Below, piece by piece: positions 1-6,720 of a stretch of 8,372 bases of DNA. Every line of letters begins with the position of its first letter. The stretch's first letter is position 1. This DNA comes from a virus (taxonomy: Duplodnaviria > Heunggongvirae > Uroviricota > Caudoviricetes). The stretch covers positions 1-8,372 of the IMG/VR virus record IMGVR_UViG_2519899564_000011, one strand, 5' to 3'. The position numbers were made by a program, and so were the translations under genes. The notes under the pieces are model-generated. The model had not been told where the DNA came from. It ran no database searches and worked only from the letters and a program-made list of their open reading frames with translations.

Positions 1-27
1 ATCACTCTCCATCGATGATTTTTTGGG

Positions 28-210
28 TTACCAATAATATTTGATAGTCGCCATAATTATCGGTAGCAACGCGCAGACAACTGAAAACCGTAAAACAAAA
101 CCTACTCCCAATATGCGATATCCATTATTCCAGAGAACAAAACTCATCATCAGAAGGAATCCATGAAAAATCGCGACAAGAAATAAACTACAAATAAATG
201 CATTTACCAT
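28..210 (-). CDS. small hydrophobic protein (60 aa, two predicted TM segments), hypothetical
   Basis: ATG at 210; GAGGGG about 10 nt upstream on the minus strand; product is mostly hydrophobic; AT-rich. No recognisable family. Confidence 0.3.
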   Translation of the reverse strand: MVNAFICSLFLVAIFHGFLLMMSFVLWNNGYRILGVGFVLRFSVVCALLPIIMATIKYYW

Positions 211-269
211 CGGTACTTACCCCTCGCTCTTAATCCAATAAAAAAGGGTTTGCTTCACTGAACACTCCT

Positions 270-455
270 TTATTTTTTATGCCTGTAACCCCATTCTTCC
301 AGCAACCTTGCGGCGTACCACCCAAGAAACAAAGGAAAGAACATTACAATGAGATATTCCCCGCCACGGTCAATGTTCGAAATTGACCAGATTACGATGT
401 AACCAGTGCAGGACAGGAATATTACAAACCCCAAAAAGCTACTTCTTCGACTCAT
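270..455 (-). CDS. small hydrophobic protein (about 61 aa), hypothetical
   Basis: The ORF track starts at a GTG at 461; I prefer the ATG at 455, which has AAGGAG 5 nt upstream. Two hydrophobic stretches. No recognisable family. Confidence 0.35.
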   Translation of the reverse strand: MSRRSSFLGFVIFLSCTGYIVIWSISNIDRGGEYLIVMFFPLFLGWYAARLLEEWGYRHKK

Positions 456-465
456 GCTCACTCCT

Positions 466-681
466 TCACTTTAAATCCAGACTCCGGATTATTCTGTTGC
501 GCTGAAACTCATTGTTGAGTTTGAACAACCGTCGAAGGACACGGTCACGCGGATAGCGTCGTGCAGCAGGTGAATGCTCATACAACTCATCAATCGGCAA
601 ACTGGACGATGAACGATACCGATACCAACGCACCAACTCTTCACGAAAATTAGCCCTGACAAGCTCAGCTATCGTACTCAT
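466..681 (-). CDS. hypothetical protein, nin-region position downstream of the replication genes
   Basis: ATG at 681 with GGAGG 9 nt upstream on the minus strand; 71 aa, basic, Arg-rich; lies immediately after a terminator-like hairpin that follows the helicase gene. Confidence 0.45.
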   Translation of the reverse strand: MSTIAELVRANFREELVRWYRYRSSSSLPIDELYEHSPAARRYPRDRVLRRLFKLNNEFQRNRIIRSLDLK

Positions 682-710
682 TTCTTAAAGCCTCCAATTC
701 CCTCTCCCCC

Positions 711-742
711 AAATAAAAAGGCCTGCGATTACCAGCAGGCCT
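711..742 (-). terminator. intrinsic terminator after the helicase gene (tR2-like position)
   Basis: Inverted repeat AGGCCTGC (719-726) / GCAGGCCT (735-742) with an 8-nt loop; on the minus strand it is followed by TTTTTATTT (revcomp of 710-718). Confidence 0.5.
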
Positions 743-767
743 GTTATTAGCTCAGTGATGTAGATGG

Positions 768-2144
768 TCATACGTCAGCCCCTTGTGCATATCGTCTGCC
801 ACGCGAAGCAGGTGCATTTGATGCTGTGCAAATCTGTCTGGCTTCATCCTGGTCACATGCAACAAAGTGTCCGTTACAGAACCGCTGGTAAACCGTACCA
901 AGTGGGCCAAACCGGTTTTTCGTCACAATGATTTCAGCAAATGGTGCGGCGCTACTGTTCTCGTCATATACCGCTTCCCGATAGAGCATGATGATTGAGT
1001 CTGCGTCCTGCTCAATGCTTCCTGAATCACGCAAATCTGCGTTTGTCGGGCGTTTGTTTGGTCGCTTCTCAACATCGCGCGAAAGCTGACTTAGGGAGAT
1101 AACAGGCGTTTTCAGGTCTTTCGCCATCGCCTTCAGGCTTCCTGAGATGTGAGCAATTGCGAGGTCGTTGCGGTCTGCTTTCGGCTTCTCAATCAGGCCA
1201 AGATAATCCGCCATGATGAGTGACAGGTTTGGATTTTCCTGTTTGTTCCGCTCTGCGATTGAGCGAATTTCTTCTACCGATAACCGCGAGGCATCGACTA
1301 CCCATACATCCAAATCTGCAAGCTGACTCATGCCGTTAGCAACACGCGCCCAGCCTTCGTCATCCATCGATGCAGGATTTCGCAGTACGCTAACCGACAT
1401 CCTCCCGGCGTTGGCAATGCTCCGCTCTGCAATCTGCAATGCGCTCATTTCCATCGAGAAAATCAACACTCCGCGCCGGACGTCAGAACCAGGAATAACG
1501 CGGCTTGCAACACCTTCGGCAATCTTCAGCGCCAGTTCGGTTTTCCCCATACCAGGACGAGCGGCGATAATCACCAGGTCTTCCGCGTTCATCCCTCCGG
1601 TGATGGCGTCAAGTTCTTCGATTCCGGTCTTCAGGGTATCTGACTCTTCTCCGTTCCTCAGACGCCTGTCAAGCGTGTCAGTGTAGTCAGTGATGATTTC
1701 CCCTAACCGTACAGGTTTAACCTCGTCACGGGGCTTTCTGATGGCTGAGAGACGCTTTACAAGCTCGTCCATCGCCTGACTCGATGTATCGATGGTTCCG
1801 CTCTGAATTGGTTCACGCATTTCGTCCATGATTTCCAGCACCAGACGGCGGTGATAGTTATCCGCGACCATTCCGGCATATCCCTTCAGGTTTGCGGCAC
1901 TCGGGCAGTTTTTGCTGGTCATCAGGATTGACGTGAAATGCTCCTCTCCGCACGCCTCGGCAACCATCAGCGCGTCGATTAGGTTTCTGTTTCTCGCCTG
2001 CTTACGGATAACTTCGAAGGCTTTCCGGTAGAGCGGAATTGAAAACGCTTCCGGCTCCAGCGTTGCCAGAACGTCGCTGGCGGTTGGTGTTAATCCACCA
2101 ATCAGCAAGCCACCGATAACGCTCGCTTCGATATCCTGTCTCAT
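768..2144 (-). CDS. replicative DNA helicase, DnaB family (phage P22 gene 12-like, lambda P position)
   Basis: 458-aa ORF; Walker A motif ARPGMGKT; DnaB-like N-terminal domain and RecA-fold C-terminal region; start codon overlaps the upstream O-like stop (ATGA at 2141-2144). Confidence 0.9.
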
Positions 2145-2962
2145 GCAATCCCCCTGTCTGCAAACTTCCCTTCCCGAACTCCCGTTAACGAGTCTTCCCT
2201 CAGCAGGTAATCAAAATCTGCCGTCCAGCCCGTGTCGTTGTCTCCGAAGTAAAACGGCTTGGCCTGATGCACAAACGCCCTGACATACGCTCTGAAACCG
2301 TCCACGTTTGGCGTTTTCAGTTGCGGGATGATTTTCTTCAGGCGGCGTTTTCGTTTCTCGTTGACCGCAACAGCGTGTGGAAGTCTGTCACCGACTTCGG
2401 TGTTGTAGGCGTTCAGGAAGGATTCGTAGTCGATTCGTTCTGCCTTGCGACGTTCAGGTTTAACCTGCCCATCGCCGCCCCCGTTAGGGGGTAAGGGGGT
2501 ATTTGTATTTATTGTCTTTTGTATATTGTCTTTTGTGTTTAGCTGACTTGGCTTATACCCATTAGCCGACTCGGCTAATGTTTTATTAGCTGTTTTAGCT
2601 AATGTTAAGCTGTCCTGGCTAATCCACTGAGAAACCACCTTGTTCACTCCGATTTTCACGCCATCAGCAATGAGGAATTTACGCTCAATAAGCTGGCGCT
2701 TGGCAGCGCAAACATGAGTGTGATGAATACCTGTCATGGCTGCTATCTGCGTGTTTGTGAGTCGATCCATCGGCTTATTGAATCCGTATGTCTTGCGCAT
2801 GATAGCGAGCATCACCTTCATCTGCCGGACGGTTAAATCAGCCATCAGCAGACTGTCGATAATCTCGTTAGCAACGCGCATGAAACCATCTTCGGTATCT
2901 GCCACGCGATGCTCCACGACCTCCAGTTGAGGCCTGTAATCAGCTAACTTAACGACGCCCAT
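2141..2962 (-). CDS. replication initiation protein, lambda O-like
   Basis: 273 aa; N-terminal region ([31 protein letters not shown]) resembles lambda O as I recall it (LTKRQFKVLLAILRKTYGWNKPMDRITDSQL); an iteron array and AT-rich tract sit inside the gene as in lambda ori. Confidence 0.85.
2497..2623 (-). repeat. origin of replication inside the O-like gene: four iterons plus AT-rich tract
   Basis: Four roughly 19-bp repeats with internal dyad symmetry TTAGC-N7-GCTAA at about 2538-2556, 2561-2579, 2585-2603 and 2603-2622; adjacent AT-rich tract 2497-2540 containing ATTGTCTTTTGT twice; GC hairpin CCCCCGTTAGGGGG at 2476-2489. Confidence 0.6.
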
Positions 2963-3110
2963 GTTTCACTCCTGCTTTGGCTAGTCTGTAAACACCAACA
3001 AGGCGCTCTGCGAACGCCCTGTTATTTGCTGCGGCTACCACTAATCCCTCAGGTGAATCAGGGTGTCGAATCTCTTCTTTTTCCTGGTATTTCTTACGAC
3101 GTTTTGTCAT
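2949..3110 (-). CDS. small basic hypothetical protein (53 aa) between cII and O
   Basis: Not in the ORF track (under 60 aa). ATG at 3110 with AGGAG 5-6 nt upstream on the minus strand; product [53 protein letters not shown]; stop overlaps the O-like start. Confidence 0.35.
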   Translation of the reverse strand: MTKRRKKYQEKEEIRHPDSPEGLVVAAANNRAFAERLVGVYRLAKAGVKHGRR

Positions 3111-3145
3111 AATTACTCCTGTGGATTGATACAGTCTTTCTACAA

Positions 3146-3424
3146 TCAGGCCTCAAAACTGTTGCCGCAGTCTTGAGGCTTTTCTTTTGTCAGCACCATG
3201 GCTACTTTCTTTGCCAGCTCCGCTAATTCCTCGTCTTCAACACCCCACTCCAGCACAGCCAGAAGCATGGCCATCTTTGGGATAAAGCTGTCTTTCCATC
3301 GCGAAATTTGCGATTCATTGATCCCTAATGCATCAGCAACCTTTCGCTGACCACGTACAGCAATTCGATTCAGGATGTTGCTTGTAATTGCATTCGCTTT
3401 CTTGCGAGTACTTGTAAGTTCCAT
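3146..3424 (-). CDS. cII: transcriptional activator CII
   Basis: From the ATG at 3424 (AAGGAAA about 9 nt upstream) the product contains GINESQISRWKDSFIPKMAMLLAVLEWGV, close to lambda CII as I recall it (GVDKSQISRWKRDWIPKFSMLLAVLEWGV). The ORF-track start at 3511 is rejected because it runs through nutR. Confidence 0.85.
   Translation of the reverse strand: MELTSTRKKANAITSNILNRIAVRGQRKVADALGINESQISRWKDSFIPKMAMLLAVLEWGVEDEELAELAKKVAMVLTKEKPQDCGNSFEA
3148..3189 (+). terminator. plus-strand intrinsic terminator antisense to the cII 3' end (oop-RNA-like)
   Basis: Stem GCCTCAA (3150-3156) / TTGAGGC (3173-3179) followed by TTTTCTTTTG (3180-3189) on the plus strand, while cII is on the minus strand ending at 3146. 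Confidence 0.5.
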
Positions 3425-3481
3425 ATGTAAGTATTTCCTTAACAAATAAGAAGTTATGCGCATCAACTTATGCGCGTTGTA

Positions 3482-3526
3482 TTCCCGCATTTCGGCGGGA
3501 ATGAGGACCATGACTGTTAAAGAGCG
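3482..3526 (-). promoter_or_regulatory. nutR (boxA plus boxB) between cro and cII
   Basis: Minus-strand CGCTCTTTAACA (revcomp of 3515-3526) matches the boxA consensus; minus-strand TCCCGCCGAAATGCGGGAA (revcomp of 3482-3500) is a 5-6 bp stem-loop and is identical to the boxB candidate at 5223-5241. Confidence 0.7.
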
Positions 3527-3533
3527 GTGTTAC

Positions 3534-3758
3534 TTATGCTGCCTGATTCGGTTTTGGAAACAGGTGTGGCAAATCGGGGCGAATTTCGTAAGCCTTGATC
3601 TGCCCTCCAGTGGCGTTAACGATGGCGGTAACTTTCTCTGGAGAGACCAACCCGCCTTTCAGCCATTTGTGTACTGCTGGCTGCGTTACACCACACTTGT
3701 CGGCAAGGCGCTTTTGGCTACCGACAATTTTCAAGGCTCGTTGAATTACTAAATTCAT
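3534..3758 (-). CDS. cro: Cro-like HTH repressor
   Basis: First gene leftward from the operator region, divergent from cI; HTH-like segment GSQKRLADKCGVTQPAVHKWLK; preferred start ATG at 3758 has AGAGGT 6 nt upstream, whereas the ORF-track start at 3779 has no SD. Confidence 0.7.
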   Translation of the reverse strand: MNLVIQRALKIVGSQKRLADKCGVTQPAVHKWLKGGLVSPEKVTAIVNATGGQIKAYEIRPDLPHLFPKPNQAA

Positions 3759-3789
3759 GAGCATACCTCTTGTGGTCATTACTTATAAC

Positions 3790-3860
3790 CAAAGATAACT
3801 CAAGTTATAAAAAATAGCAATAACCTTTGTTATTTTACTTTGGATAACCGTAGTTATAGA
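3790..3860. promoter_or_regulatory. OR operator region with divergent promoters (PR leftward, PRM rightward)
   Basis: Three 14-bp palindromes ATAAC-N4-GTTAT at 3795-3808, 3820-3833 and 3844-3857, spaced about 24-25 bp. Candidate PR on the minus strand: -35 TTGCTA (3820-3815), 17-bp spacer, -10 TATCTT (3797-3792). Confidence 0.65.
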
Positions 3861-3869
3861 TTTGTGGGT

Positions 3870-4577
3870 ATGAAAACATTCGCAGAAAGACTAAATGCAG
3901 CCATGAGCTCAGCAGGGGTATCACAATCACAGCTTGCTGACATGGTTGGAATATCTCAGCCAGCCATACAGAAGATGTCGTCCGGTAAAACAAACGGATC
4001 TCGCAAGATGGTTGAATTAGCCAATGCTTTAAAAGTGCGCCCTGAATGGCTTAGTTCTGGTATTGGTGAAATGAGGGATGGTGCACATGAAGAACCATCC
4101 AATGTCCGTGATTCATCTTTAAAAGCTGTGGTATGGGAAGACATTAAAAGAAACGATGACGAGTTTGTTGCGTTGCCTCTTCTTAACGTTTCGCTTTCAG
4201 CTGGAAGCGGTAGCTGCGAGCTAGAGGAATCATCGGAGTTCTCTTTGGTTTTCAGAAAGCACTATCTGAAAAAGATGGGAGTATCTGAAAGATCAGCCAA
4301 GCTAGTTAGGGTTGTAGGGCAAAGCATGGAACCAACGCTTCACGATGGCGATGTTGTTGGTGTTAACACGCAAGATACCACAATCAGAGATGGTAAAACC
4401 TACGCTATTTGCCAGTCTGATTTGTTACGAGTAAAAACATTAATCGCCACCCCTACATCGGTGATAATCAGATCAATAAATCGCGAAGAGTACCCGGATG
4501 AAGTAATGGATAGAGATGAATTTCATGAAACCGTAAGGATTATTGGCAGAGTATTCTGGTCGTCTCATAGTTGGTAA
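3870..4577 (+). CDS. cI: CI repressor (N-terminal HTH, C-terminal S24 LexA-like autopeptidase domain)
   Basis: HTH region QSQLADMVGISQPAIQKM; Ala-Gly candidate cleavage site in LSAGSG; Ser in GQSMEP and Lys in LRVKT fit the LexA/cI catalytic dyad. ATG at 3870 preferred over the ORF-track TTG at 3840, which lies inside an operator. Confidence 0.85.
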   Translation: MKTFAERLNAAMSSAGVSQSQLADMVGISQPAIQKMSSGKTNGSRKMVELANALKVRPEWLSSGIGEMRDGAHEEPSNVRDSSLKAVVWEDIKRNDDEFVALPLLNVSLSAGSGSCELEESSEFSLVFRKHYLKKMGVSERSAKLVRVVGQSMEPTLHDGDVVGVNTQDTTIRDGKTYAICQSDLLRVKTLIATPTSVIIRSINREEYPDEVMDRDEFHETVRIIGRVFWSSHSW

Positions 4578-4617
4578 CCGATAATCAGAAGAAGACTTAC
4601 GGAAGTGCGGAGGGATA

Positions 4618-4914
4618 ATGGAATTTCTGATAGTTTTTGTTGTTGTTTTGGTCATCATTCTTTTTGTTTTGCTAAGCATTAGTAAAAAGCTATCTCAAAT
4701 GATTGAACATAGCTCTAATCGTGCAAAAGAAGAAGAGCATATAATTGATATAAAAGAGATTCTCTCTGATATAAAAATCACATTAGATGAAATAAAATAC
4801 ACAACAGATCTAATTGAACAGTATAAAATACCAACCCCAAACGAGAGAAAAGCAATAGATCAATATCGTATTGACTTAGAAATCGACGAAATGCTAAGCA
4901 AAAGAAAAGACTAA
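4618..4914 (+). CDS. hypothetical single-pass membrane protein in the rex position (cI-linked moron)
   Basis: ATG at 4618 with GGAGGG 5 nt upstream; 98 aa with an N-terminal hydrophobic helix (LIVFVVVLVIILFVLLSI) and a charged helical C-terminal region; strongly AT-rich; about 40 nt after the cI stop and followed by a strong terminator. Confidence 0.55.
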   Translation: MEFLIVFVVVLVIILFVLLSISKKLSQMIEHSSNRAKEEEHIIDIKEILSDIKITLDEIKYTTDLIEQYKIPTPNERKAIDQYRIDLEIDEMLSKRKD

Positions 4915-4919
4915 AAACA

Positions 4920-4946
4920 CCCGGCCTCAGCGCCGGGTTTTCTTTT
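4920..4946 (+). terminator. intrinsic terminator ending the cI-moron transcript
   Basis: GC-rich stem CCCGGC (4920-4925) / GCCGGG (4932-4937) followed by TTTTCTTTTCC. Confidence 0.7.
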
Positions 4947-5067
4947 CCTGCCGTTCACCACCCAATCAACCATCCTCATCATAGACAAGCATCAAGCCAA
5001 AGGTAACACCTTCACCCCGCACGCAAGCCCTCAAACACCAATCAATCAGCAACATTTACAAAAATAA

Positions 5068-5153
5068 AATACCTTTGTTATCCATCACTTATAACCTATT
5101 CACCATAAAATATAAATTAGGTTATTGACCACACCTATAACCTAAGTTATCTT
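5068..5153 (+). promoter_or_regulatory. OL operators and PL promoter
   Basis: ATAACCTAAGTTAT (5137-5150) is a perfect match to the OR palindrome; ATAAATTAGGTTAT (5112-5125) has one mismatch; a degenerate copy sits at 5068-5081. Candidate PL: -35 TTGACC (5125-5130), 17-bp spacer, -10 TATCTT (5148-5153), the same -10 hexamer as the PR candidate. Confidence 0.6.
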
Positions 5154-5199
5154 TAAGCCATCAGCAGGACGCTGGAAGCCAAACGGAACAGATTGGCAG

Positions 5200-5241
5200 G
5201 CTCTTTAACATTGATGGGATTGTCCCGCCGAAATGCGGGAA
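5200..5241 (+). promoter_or_regulatory. nutL (boxA plus boxB)
   Basis: GCTCTTTAACA (5200-5210) matches boxA; TCCCGCCGAAATGCGGGAA (5223-5241) is a stem-loop identical to the nutR boxB; located between PL and N. Confidence 0.7.
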
Positions 5242-5347
5242 CCAAAGAGTAGTTGGCTTTGGGGTGACGTGAAGTGCAGCTGCAAGACGGCAACCGGAAG
5301 ATAAGCACGCGGCGCGTCACCGCCAAAGTCAATCATCGGAGGTCAAC

Positions 5348-5620
5348 ATGACAGTAGTCATTACATATCTGGCTGACGATAACGCCAGAAATCGCCGCAG
5401 AGCACGCAGACAGGCTCAACGTGAACAGGCAATGCAAGAACAGCGATTGGCACGAAAAATTGCGCTAAAGCTCTCTGGTTGCGTCAGAGCAGATAAAGCA
5501 GCATCACTCGGAAGCCTTCGCTGCAAGAAGGCAGATGAATGCAGTGGAAGTATTTGCCTGCCAAACGTAGCCATTTACGCGGCAGGCTACCGGAAATCAA
5601 AACAACTGACGGCGAGGTAA
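5348..5620 (+). CDS. N: antitermination protein N (P22 gp24-like)
   Basis: First gene after PL/nutL; GGAGG 5 nt upstream of the ATG; N-terminal arginine-rich motif NARNRRRARRQAQREQ; C-terminal LPNVAIYAAGYRKSKQLTAR resembles the P22 gene 24 product as I recall it. Confidence 0.8.
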   Translation: MTVVITYLADDNARNRRRARRQAQREQAMQEQRLARKIALKLSGCVRADKAASLGSLRCKKADECSGSICLPNVAIYAAGYRKSKQLTAR

Positions 5621-5622
5621 TT

Positions 5623-5802
5623 ATGGGTCAGGAAGAAAAATATGAGCTTAAAAAGCTCATTGGAGAAGACGCCATAGAAGAAATTGCAGCATTAACAACA
5701 GCTATAAAGAATATTAGGTATGCGCTAAATACGCTTATCTCCTCATGCGACAAAAATAGCAGGGAATTTTTTGATACTTGGCGCAGCTCTAGGAATAGTT
5801 GA
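5623..5802 (+). CDS. small hypothetical protein (59 aa)
   Basis: ATG at 5623 sits 2 nt after the N stop, with GAGG 5 nt upstream. The ORF-track version (5539) starts inside N and is probably over-extended. No recognisable family. Confidence 0.4.
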   Translation: MGQEEKYELKKLIGEDAIEEIAALTTAIKNIRYALNTLISSCDKNSREFFDTWRSSRNS

Positions 5803-5986
5803 TGCGGCAACGCTTCACCTAATTACTCATGACGATATTCTTATTGAGCCGTATGAAACATTACTGCTTGTCAGGCAAAAAATGGCTGATGCCGCAGCAA
5901 ATGGAGACCTTCAACTTTACATCGACTTAAGGAAAGTATTAAGGCGAATGGTCAAAACTGAAGGAGATATCCCCCTGACAAAGTAA
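5771..5986 (+). CDS. small hypothetical protein (TTG start; alternative ATG at 5879)
   Basis: The ORF-track start is TTG with AGGGAA 4-5 nt upstream; the only in-frame ATG is at 5879. AT-rich; start uncertain. Confidence 0.3.
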   Translation: MILGAALGIVDAATLHLITHDDILIEPYETLLLVRQKMADAAANGDLQLYIDLRKVLRRMVKTEGDIPLTK

Positions 5987-6016
5987 GGGGGTGAAGAGGC
6001 CATTTCAGGAATAAAA

Positions 6017-6511
6017 TTAATAATTTGTCAGCGGCGGTACATATACAGGCTTAGGGTCTGGCGCTCTATACATCCGGTATTCATTCTTACAGCGAGGACA
6101 TGAATGCACAAAGAACCCATTAGATTTTATAGTAACCGTGCTTGGTTGAAGTATCGATATTTTATGTTCGCCGAAGCAATGTGCACAAAGGTTATGCTGC
6201 TGAATAGAAGGATCGGAATGACTCTTAGGTCGATACACGACAGAACCACCTTCAGTTGTATGAAGTTCATAATTCTCAGCTTGCACAACAAACATCTTGA
6301 TTTTTCTATTTTCATCTCGAAGCTTCATTGCGATCTCCTTCTCGGCCTGATAAAGGCCAGAGAGCTCCGCATTAAGCATCTGTAAGTCAGTTATTCTTTG
6401 GTGTAGATCACCAATAGCTTTAGCGATAACAGCATCGTCTCTGGTTTCTTTTATTGTCTTCAGCAGATCATAAGCCTGTTTCGCGGCAGTTATACCAGAT
6501 AACACATCCAT
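6017..6511 (-). CDS. hypothetical coiled-coil plus C-terminal zinc-ribbon protein, antisense to the PL operon
   Basis: 164 aa, ATG at 6511; N-terminal half is heptad-like and charged; C-terminal CAHC...(26 aa)...CPRC pair looks like a zinc ribbon; AT-rich; the only minus-strand gene in the early-left region, with a repeat-rich upstream region. Confidence 0.6.
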   Translation of the reverse strand: MDVLSGITAAKQAYDLLKTIKETRDDAVIAKAIGDLHQRITDLQMLNAELSGLYQAEKEIAMKLRDENRKIKMFVVQAENYELHTTEGGSVVYRPKSHSDPSIQQHNLCAHCFGEHKISILQPSTVTIKSNGFFVHSCPRCKNEYRMYRAPDPKPVYVPPLTNY

Positions 6512-6720
6512 ATAAATTACTCTCTTACTGTAGGGGTAAGAGGATTTTACTATTTTTCTCGCTGTAGGGGTACACGAGAACCACCGAGCCTGATGTGGTT
6601 AAAAGACAGGCATACGAATAAACACTGCACTGTGTATTCATTCCAACGAGTGAATACACGGAGCAATGTCGCTCGTAACTAAACAGGAGCCGACTTGTTC
6701 TGATTATTGGAAATCTTCTT

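Follow-up and report, generated by a model that had tools for sequence, protein, structure and literature searches.

The gene hkaP, on the minus strand at positions 6017-6511 of an 8,372-nucleotide (nt) stretch of Caudoviricetes DNA (IMG/VR record IMGVR_UViG_2519899564_000011, positions 1 to 8,372; the whole stretch is called the window here), very likely encodes a divergent enterobacterial member of the Rip1 family, a group of prophage-encoded defences in which one protein suffices for abortive infection, and its product would act by a Rip1-type mechanism. Judged by its open reading frames (ORFs) and by profile searches, the window represents the immunity/early region of a lambdoid phage or prophage that resembles HK620 and P22. 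An earlier prediction, made from the letters of the sequence alone (the original prediction), had described in this place a 164-amino acid (aa) minus-strand ORF inside the operon driven by the early-left promoter PL, and had proposed that it is an independently expressed moron, such as a defence or regulatory protein, of unknown function. The ORF is present exactly as described, with an ATG start, and the idea of a defence moron is supported by the homology of the gene to Rip1, a prophage-encoded anti-phage protein. The label of unknown function can be dropped, as the profile and the fold now assign a family-level function through homology to Rip1.

The gene is well conserved. The DNA of the window between positions 5900 and 6746 is 99.3% identical to that of phage HK620, where the ORF is named hkaP (AAK28864); the HK620 protein is 99.4% identical to that of the window, and the HK620 record (2001) labels it 'putative superinfection exclusion protein'. 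A protein search yielded homologues in 34 clusters (45-99% identity) from the genera Escherichia, Salmonella, Serratia, Yersinia, Pantoea, Hafnia, Edwardsiella, Sodalis and Enterobacter. In these clusters 21 columns are invariant, including C109, C112, C138 and C141. Pairwise dN/dS against five homologues ranges from 0.14 to 0.35, with dS near saturation, and the gene is under purifying selection. The exact coding sequence occurs in 66 of 5,426 complete E. coli genomes, including those of O26 Shiga toxin-producing E. coli strains, where it is labelled 'hypothetical protein', and the gene is also found in a Stx1a-converting phage. No function for hkaP was found in the searchable literature, in which the sole paper naming the gene uses its flanks as reporter insertion sites.

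Since the ORF lies antisense to an operon whose transcription must pass through it, and since its RefSeq label is still 'hypothetical protein', one could take it for no more than a shadow on the antisense strand of the early-left transcript, non-coding and without a protein product. The original prediction had named such a shadow, without a conserved frame in related prophages, as the outcome that would overturn it. The frame is conserved in the relatives and is kept across the genera of the Enterobacterales at the identities given above, which together with the dN/dS values excludes the shadow; in addition the four cysteines are invariant, a homologue has a solved cryo-electron microscopy structure, and the AlphaFold2 (AF2) model of the protein is confident. 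We consider a non-coding ORF hardly conceivable. The coding region is divided as follows:

6017-6511, minus strand: coding sequence of hkaP (rip1 family), ATG start, 164 aa; evidence from the ORF, the identity to HK620, phrog_1244, the match to 9oox and dN/dS.
6278-6511, minus strand: codons 1-78, long N-terminal helical region (AF2 helices, predicted local distance difference test score, pLDDT, about 90), which by homology would be the amphipathic, pore-forming half of Rip1.
6062-6271, minus strand: codons 81-150, C-terminal beta or zinc-ribbon-like domain, by homology the putative ring-contacting half.
6185-6187, 6176-6178, 6098-6100 and 6089-6091, minus strand: the codons of C109, C112, C138 and C141, respectively.

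The AF2 model and a family profile were built on an alignment of 35 sequences. In the model (pLDDT 87) helices 3-22 and 26-78 are followed by a small beta domain that holds the cysteine pairs, in line with the coiled-coil-like N-terminal half and the CAHC...CPRC C-terminus of the original prediction. The family hidden Markov model matched 9oox_L of the PDB, 'ring interacting pore 1 (Rip1)' of 164 aa, with an E-value of 9.3e-18 (query positions 16-149, target positions 28-159). A Foldseek search of the PDB gave only two significant matches, both of them chains of 9oox (9oox_M: E 9e-7, target-normalised TM score 0.72, root-mean-square deviation 3.5 A, 123 columns), and the next match followed at E 0.87. 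The 9oox entry represents the Rip1 of phage HK446 (gp37, YP_007111990) in complex with the small terminase of T6. Pairwise BLASTP comparisons of HkaP gave 28% identity with HK446 gp37 (E 4e-14) and 27% with gp30 of Pseudomonas phage JBD30 (E 1e-16). The mutual identity of the HK446 Rip1 and JBD30 gp30 is only 31%, which is comparable to the divergence of HkaP (27-28%). The family phrog_1244, of unknown function in PHROGs, takes HkaP (E 8e-51), HK446 Rip1 and JBD30 gp30 (range E 1e-51 to 1e-61). The residues Y81, C109, C112, L121, Q122, C138 and C141 are invariant between the HkaP-type proteins and the homologues of HK446, 689R2, JBD30, LPB1, Pelagibaca and PhiR29_2, and the hydrophobic moment of the N-terminal helix of HkaP (0.25-0.50) is similar to that of HK446 Rip1 but not distinctive. 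Searches of HkaP against Pfam, NCBIfam and PADLOC produced sub-threshold matches only (Zn_ribbon_SprT, E 0.014; Cas10, E 0.0035). All contexts of HkaP homologues that contain recognisable phage genes are prophage or phage, the homologue is a single gene, and no conserved partner gene was seen in the contexts examined.

The Rip1 protein was described by Patel et al. (Nature 651:1060, 2026), and is summarised in a review of 2026 (PMC13434031) and in a conference report (PMC12908700). In the account given by the PMC13434031 summary, the Rip1 protein is encoded by prophages and is by itself non-toxic, and mutations that escape it affect the portal in Pseudomonas phages and the small terminase in E. 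coli phages. According to the same summary, 12 Rip1 monomers surround an 11-mer ring of the small terminase; the C-terminal half touches the ring, the N-terminal part is helical and amphipathic, and the whole assembly acts as a pore, which makes membranes permeable and lyses the infected cell prematurely. Homology in sequence and fold suggests that HkaP, too, may form a pore and respond to such a trigger.

The HK446 protein resembles HkaP in its length (164 aa), in its membership of phrog_1244, in its long N-terminal helix followed by a Cys4 beta domain, and in the invariant Y, CxxC, ILQ and CxxC motifs. The genes are also placed alike: both are convergent with N and antisense in the PL operon, the HK446 gene overlapping the end of N, and the 120 nt upstream of HK446 rip1 are about 98% identical to the window, up to the ATG. 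The GenBank note on the HK446 gene reads 'similar to HK620p16', which is hkaP. The two proteins differ in that they share only 28% of their residues and in a 12-residue N-terminal extension of HK446 Rip1. Since the ring-contacting C-terminal half is divergent, the phage proteins that are recognised may differ. The Rip1-type proteins of the Mu-like Pseudomonas phages (Casadabanvirus; JBD30 gp30, DMS3, D3112 orf25) likewise belong to phrog_1244, carry the Cys4 and ILQ motifs, and are 27% identical to HkaP over the full length, and their genes are inverted with respect to the flanking lytic genes. Unlike hkaP they do not lie in the early-left region but just upstream of the large terminase gene, after a 'DNA binding protein' gene, and they are not preceded by the PsieB/sas cassette described below (no ACCCCTACAG repeats). 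In the PMC13434031 summary the Pseudomonas rip1 has the small terminase gene on one side and the large terminase gene on the other.

A possible relic of the family was encountered in a Shigella flexneri / E. coli chromosome (loci L015/L016, 5067-5276). Next to ydfC lies a 69-aa remnant ORF with 31% identity to the C-terminal zinc-ribbon half of HkaP (CPEC...CPSC, ILQP motif), apparently a decayed Rip1-family gene. ydfC is a gene of the Qin cryptic prophage, and the annotations of other E. coli genomes likewise place comparable DNA beside ydfC.

The position of hkaP is that of sieB in other lambdoid phages. In lambda, sieB (34482-35036, plus strand) adjoins N (complement of 35037-35438), on the strand opposite to PL transcription, and P22 has the same arrangement; in both, as for hkaP, the gene lies between N and ral/cIII. 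Homologues of hkaP in prophages of Serratia and Salmonella are found in this slot as well, next to N and inverted. In Yersinia pseudotuberculosis the homologue is inverted between the Q antiterminator and holin genes, and in JBD30 and LPB1 the rip1-type gene is inverted just upstream of the large terminase gene, following a gene annotated only as 'DNA binding protein'. In PhiR29_2 and vB_EcoM-689R2 the homologue sits beside cI, inverted relative to the early-left genes. No recognisable phage genes were seen around the Yokenella homologue (L013). Wherever the context examined was recognisably that of a phage, the gene runs against an operon of the lytic cycle. The inverted orientation is thus a trait of the family, and the 'sieB slot' is canonical in lambdoid phages and not an oddity of the window. 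The original prediction was right about an inverted gene in a PL-driven stretch, but this is nothing singular, since sieB of lambda and P22 holds the same inverted slot.

The Yersinia pseudotuberculosis prophage (L008-L010) has its homologue at 5001-5465, inverted relative to the late operon, and carries a PsieB/sas-type cassette, with both exact repeats in L008 and one in L009/L010. The slot between Q and holin, into which gene and cassette have moved here, is the one that holds stx in Stx phages.

The similarity to the sieB region extends to the control elements upstream of hkaP, which are listed here together with the antisense region that covers them:

6567-6574, minus strand: -35 region TGTACCCC, a poor match to the consensus, overlapping the first ACCCCTACAG repeat and homologous to the 5' end of the P22 sieB promoter.
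6562-6571, minus strand: first ACCCCTACAG repeat, which precedes the second by 34 nt and does not vary among 57 distinct cassette sequences.
6544-6549, minus strand: -10 hexamer TAAAAT of the putative PsieB-type hkaP promoter, aligned with the TAAACT -10 of the P22 sieB promoter.
6528-6537, minus strand: second ACCCCTACAG repeat, the first A of which (6537) is the predicted 5' end of the mRNA.
6512-6537, minus strand: predicted 5' untranslated region (UTR) of 26 nt, with a weak GAGAG Shine-Dalgarno (SD) sequence at 6520-6524.
6507-6628, plus strand: region of the putative sas-like antisense RNA, in the direction of PL transcription; antisense to the start codon and SD of hkaP, to its 5' UTR, and to the promoter with the hairpins upstream.

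About 100 nt upstream of the ATG are strikingly conserved between homologues whose proteins share 28-70% identity, including the Yersinia copy in its other slot. A cassette with the ACCCCTACAG repeats precedes lambda sieB and P22 sieB as well. In the window the repeat occurs in two exact copies and one copy with a single mismatch, against 0.2 expected. The P22 record (BK000583) annotates the sieB promoter at 29690-29720 and the 'sieB RNA start site' at 29727; the latter is the A of the second repeat, and the -10 TAAACT lies 7 nt upstream of it. The TAAAAT of the window occupies the homologous place, with the same 7-nt spacing to the start-site A. The placement of the hkaP promoter follows from this homology, and the hexamer that the original prediction had picked as a -10 candidate (6549-6544 on the minus strand) is, by alignment with P22, the right one. 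The homology to the annotated P22 promoter and RNA start site also supports its proposal that hkaP would be expressed independently while PL is repressed, that is, from the prophage. A reading of the repeats as a sigma-32 or sigma-54 promoter was tried by eye and gave no match.

Ranade and Poteete reportedly found in 1993 that sieB is expressed from the prophage. HkaP could be imagined to work like SieB, as a superinfection-exclusion protein that aborts the lytic growth of other phages along the still poorly defined route of SieB and protects its own phage through an Esc-like internal product. The slot, the orientation, the promoter and the antisense cassette are the same as those of lambda and P22 sieB, to which an exclusion-type role is also assigned, and the HK620 annotation as an exclusion protein fits too. 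The proteins themselves are different: SieB of lambda and P22 matches PF14163 at about 1e-29 and has hydrophobic stretches at its N-terminus, whereas HkaP has no significant Pfam match, lacks any hydrophobic segment that could span the membrane (mean hydrophobicity at most 0.21), and looks like a soluble helix plus zinc-ribbon protein. Nor is an Esc-like internal start evident in hkaP. No conserved internal start with an esc-like SD was seen; the internal Met codons M45, M62 and M73 have no obvious SD ahead of them on inspection of the sequence, and M45 is not invariant. Both sequence and fold point to Rip1, and we consider a SieB-like action of HkaP improbable.

The cysteine pairs and the repeats could instead suggest a regulatory protein that binds nucleic acid: HkaP would then dimerise through its coiled coil, carry a zinc ribbon and act in the lysogen on the expression of phage or host genes, and would be no defence effector. 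CxxC...CxxC zinc ribbons are common in DNA- and RNA-binding proteins, the sub-threshold Zn_ribbon_SprT match mentioned above agrees with such a role, and the two identical ACCCCTACAG repeats in the hkaP control region could be the sites of an autoregulator. The repeats are, however, equally conserved before the unrelated SieB genes, and for this reason they were rejected as HkaP-specific operators. No helix-turn-helix or other DNA-binding family of Pfam or NCBIfam was matched, and the only significant relative in sequence and in structure is Rip1. A regulator is therefore, in our judgement, a very improbable alternative to the assignment of HkaP to the Rip1 family.

In P22 the sieB control region also encodes, on the PL strand, the antisense RNA sas, which is said (Ranade and Poteete, 1993) to be made by the infecting phage and to block SieB translation. 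An RNA-seq study of 2026 (PMC13397905) gives P22 sas as a 127-nt sequence, which in that data set was detected in infected cells only. We found this sequence to be the exact reverse complement of P22 from -122 to +5 of the sieB ATG, so that it takes in the sieB promoter with its upstream hairpins, the RNA start site, the 5' UTR, the SD and the start codon. The plus strand of the window is 86% identical to P22 sas over 6517-6612, and a sas-like RNA would span about 6507-6628. Because cIII and kil lie beyond hkaP, early-left transcription must cross hkaP in the antisense direction. From this anatomy and the P22 precedent we infer that hkaP may be under antisense control.

A structure of the plus-strand RNA was derived manually and examined on 57 distinct cassette sequences. 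Its elements are a hairpin of variable stem on the 5' side, another hairpin (UUCUCG/CGAGAA) and, on the 3' side, an H-type pseudoknot in which CCAC/GUGG is interleaved with GCCUG/CAGGC; CUGUAGGGGU is presented in the loops of both hairpins. Pairing is preserved in 86.8% of the cells, against 38-51% in slid controls, and 11 of the 22 pairs are changed on both sides, while no shuffle reached the observed covariation score. In divergent cassettes both stems of the pseudoknot are maintained through compensatory changes, such as GCCGGG/CCCGGC in Serratia. The first helix shifts its register between the cargo classes (63.7% paired). RNAalifold gave a structure of invariant columns only, which is uninformative, and no known RNA family was detected by an Rfam search (E up to 1) in any part of the window, the sas-like RNA included.

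Several points weigh against the interpretation given so far. With an identity of only 27-28% to the characterised Rip1 proteins, HkaP could depart from them in its specificity for the trigger or even in whether it forms a pore. Its N-terminal helix is moderately amphipathic, which does not discriminate, and the family is present neither in PADLOC-DB 2023 nor in NCBIfam. A scan for the sigma-70 consensus calls no minus-strand promoter upstream of hkaP, the -35 being poor, as it is in P22. For the RNA, the compensatory changes come from few divergent sequences, most of the cassettes being close relatives, and the structure was derived from the same sequences on which it was tested. The minimum free energy of the sas-like strand is unremarkable (z = -1.25, not significant). 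Finally, the promoter scan found no promoter for a sas-like RNA inside hkaP, for which reason this RNA would have to arise by read-through from PL, with processing.

The cassette is not tied to one gene. When viral contigs were scanned for the repeat pair, at least 120 stretches matched, and in 119 of those listed the downstream ORF could be read. Among these matches the cassette precedes a SieB-family gene in 91 cases, a Rip1-type gene in 25 and an ORF of 80 aa in three. The SieB cargo listed is of three types, those of lambda and P22 and a divergent one in which the match to PF14163 persists, and the Rip1-family cargo comprises 19 genes of the HK446 type and six of the HkaP type. The PsieB/sas cassette is thus a portable module that is combined with alternative cargo (SieB, Rip1-type and the 80-aa ORF) in lambdoid phages. 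Between HK620 hkaP and HK446 rip1 the cassette is near-identical up to the ATG, after which the proteins diverge to 28% identity, which points to cargo exchange by recombination at the cassette.

The third cargo is a protein of 80-83 aa (MSDIPEMIFPVALTHP...), which lies under the PsieB/sas cassette in the viral contigs L024 (locus 1092-1135), L101 (locus 632-677) and L140. It has no Pfam match and only a weak match to phrog_19636, and its gene could be one more for exclusion or defence.

We tentatively suggest, as a possibility that falls somewhat short of even, that the cassette of about 120 nt is a portable 'self-immunity switch' for interchangeable abortive-infection effectors, namely SieB, two divergent Rip1 types and the 80-aa protein. 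If this holds, the cassette would drive the effector in the lysogen, and in the lytic cycle the structured antisense RNA would block translation of the effector. A superinfecting phage with a matching cassette would also make the antisense RNA and block the effector, and cassette-matched phages would be predicted to be natural escapers. In the case of Rip1, such a switch would explain how a phage avoids death by its own terminase or portal rings.

The sequence of events that we propose for hkaP is the following. In the lysogen, with PL repressed, hkaP would be transcribed toward PL from its own PsieB-type promoter, starting near 6537, as judged from the homology to P22. By analogy to Rip1, HkaP would be harmless alone, and the ring-shaped small terminase or portal oligomers of another phage would act as the trigger. 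The C-terminal Cys4 domain would bind around the ring and the N-terminal helices would assemble into a membrane pore, and the cell would die before progeny mature, aborting the infection. Upon induction of the resident phage, N-antiterminated transcription from PL would run antisense through hkaP and the cassette, resulting in convergent transcription. Following the precedent of P22 sieB and sas, this read-through may yield a sas-like RNA over the 5' UTR, SD and start codon of hkaP, and synthesis of the Rip1-type protein would stop when the resident phage goes lytic.

The best overall DNA match to the window is a Stx1a-converting phage (99.3% over 78% of the window). The remaining features of the window are:

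768-2144, minus strand: DnaB-type helicase.
2141-2962, minus strand: O-like gene.
3146-3511, minus strand: cII.
3534-3779, minus strand: cro.
3840-4577, plus strand: cI.
4618-4914, plus strand: 98-aa ORF with a hydrophobic N-terminus.
4919-4938: intrinsic, bidirectional terminator.
5125-5153, plus strand: candidate PL, TTGACC-17-TATCTT, from the promoter scan.
5348-5620, plus strand: antiterminator N (Pfam N_peptide, E 1e-15).
5623-5986, plus strand: hkaQ-like gene.
5962-5976, minus strand: weak terminator-like hairpin downstream of the hkaP stop, within the 3' end of the convergent hkaQ; a candidate from the scan only.
6720-6749, plus strand: tL2A-type intrinsic terminator of the early-left operon (GCCCTC..GAGGGC and a T run), from the scan and from the tL2A annotation in HK620 and Sf6.
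6869-7729, plus strand: Sf6 gp33/TolA-like gene.
7754-7885, plus strand: cIII.
7870-8022, plus strand: kil.

As the original prediction had stated, the other recognisable genes between PL and erf (N, the hkaQ-like gene, the Sf6 gp33/TolA-like gene, cIII and kil) are all on the plus strand; erf itself lies past the end of the window and is present further on in related records. The tL2A-type terminator is located in a conserved lambdoid boundary sequence (about 6616-6746), annotated in Sf6 as 'bsq4 boundary sequence'. Homology to many lambdoid phages picks up again at 6616, the bsq4/tL2A segment (6616-6749) is common to hundreds of phages, and the PsieB/sas cassette abuts it. The hkaP coding sequence is AT-rich, as had been noticed (41.4% GC, and 36% at third codon positions; the window as a whole has 45.4% GC, and N and the replication genes have 50-53%), but it does not stand out as compositionally foreign, its neighbours being alike: hkaQ has 39.8% GC, the upstream region 42.6% and kil 41.8%.

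Three of the neighbouring genes deserve a remark. The hkaQ-like gene (phrog_7374; 120 aa in HK620) is broken into the overlapping ORFs 5539-5802 and 5771-5986 by a single extra T at 5767 relative to HK620, which makes it either a pseudogene or the result of a sequencing error in a T run. The 98-aa ORF at 4618-4914 (29% GC, phrog_18389) lies directly downstream of cI, the position of rexAB in lambda, and is possibly another moron expressed from the prophage. The product of 6869-7729, directly after tL2A, is a protein of 286 aa rich in glutamate, alanine and lysine (phrog_1376/21365) that is labelled 'TolA' in several records; in strain PEC422 this Sf6 gp33-like gene carries an insertion of an IS3 element.

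The Rip1 family (2026), the sieB slot and the positional annotation of hkaP as an exclusion gene are already known, and the biology of hkaP is largely explained by the 2026 Rip1 paper and the work on sieB from the 1990s. The HkaP clade is apparently new within Rip1, and no paper linking Rip1 genes to the sieB promoter and the sas cassette was found in the searchable literature. The assignment provides a concrete, testable function for a gene that has been called hypothetical since the HK620 genome of 2001, and it would extend the Rip1 family to a divergent enterobacterial branch, which may recognise other phage ring proteins. That the lambdoid Rip1 genes share the slot, the promoter and the sas of sieB suggests a way in which a prophage entering its own lytic growth might keep a pore-forming suicide protein silent, and the shared cassette also suggests how related phages might evade a Rip1-type defence.

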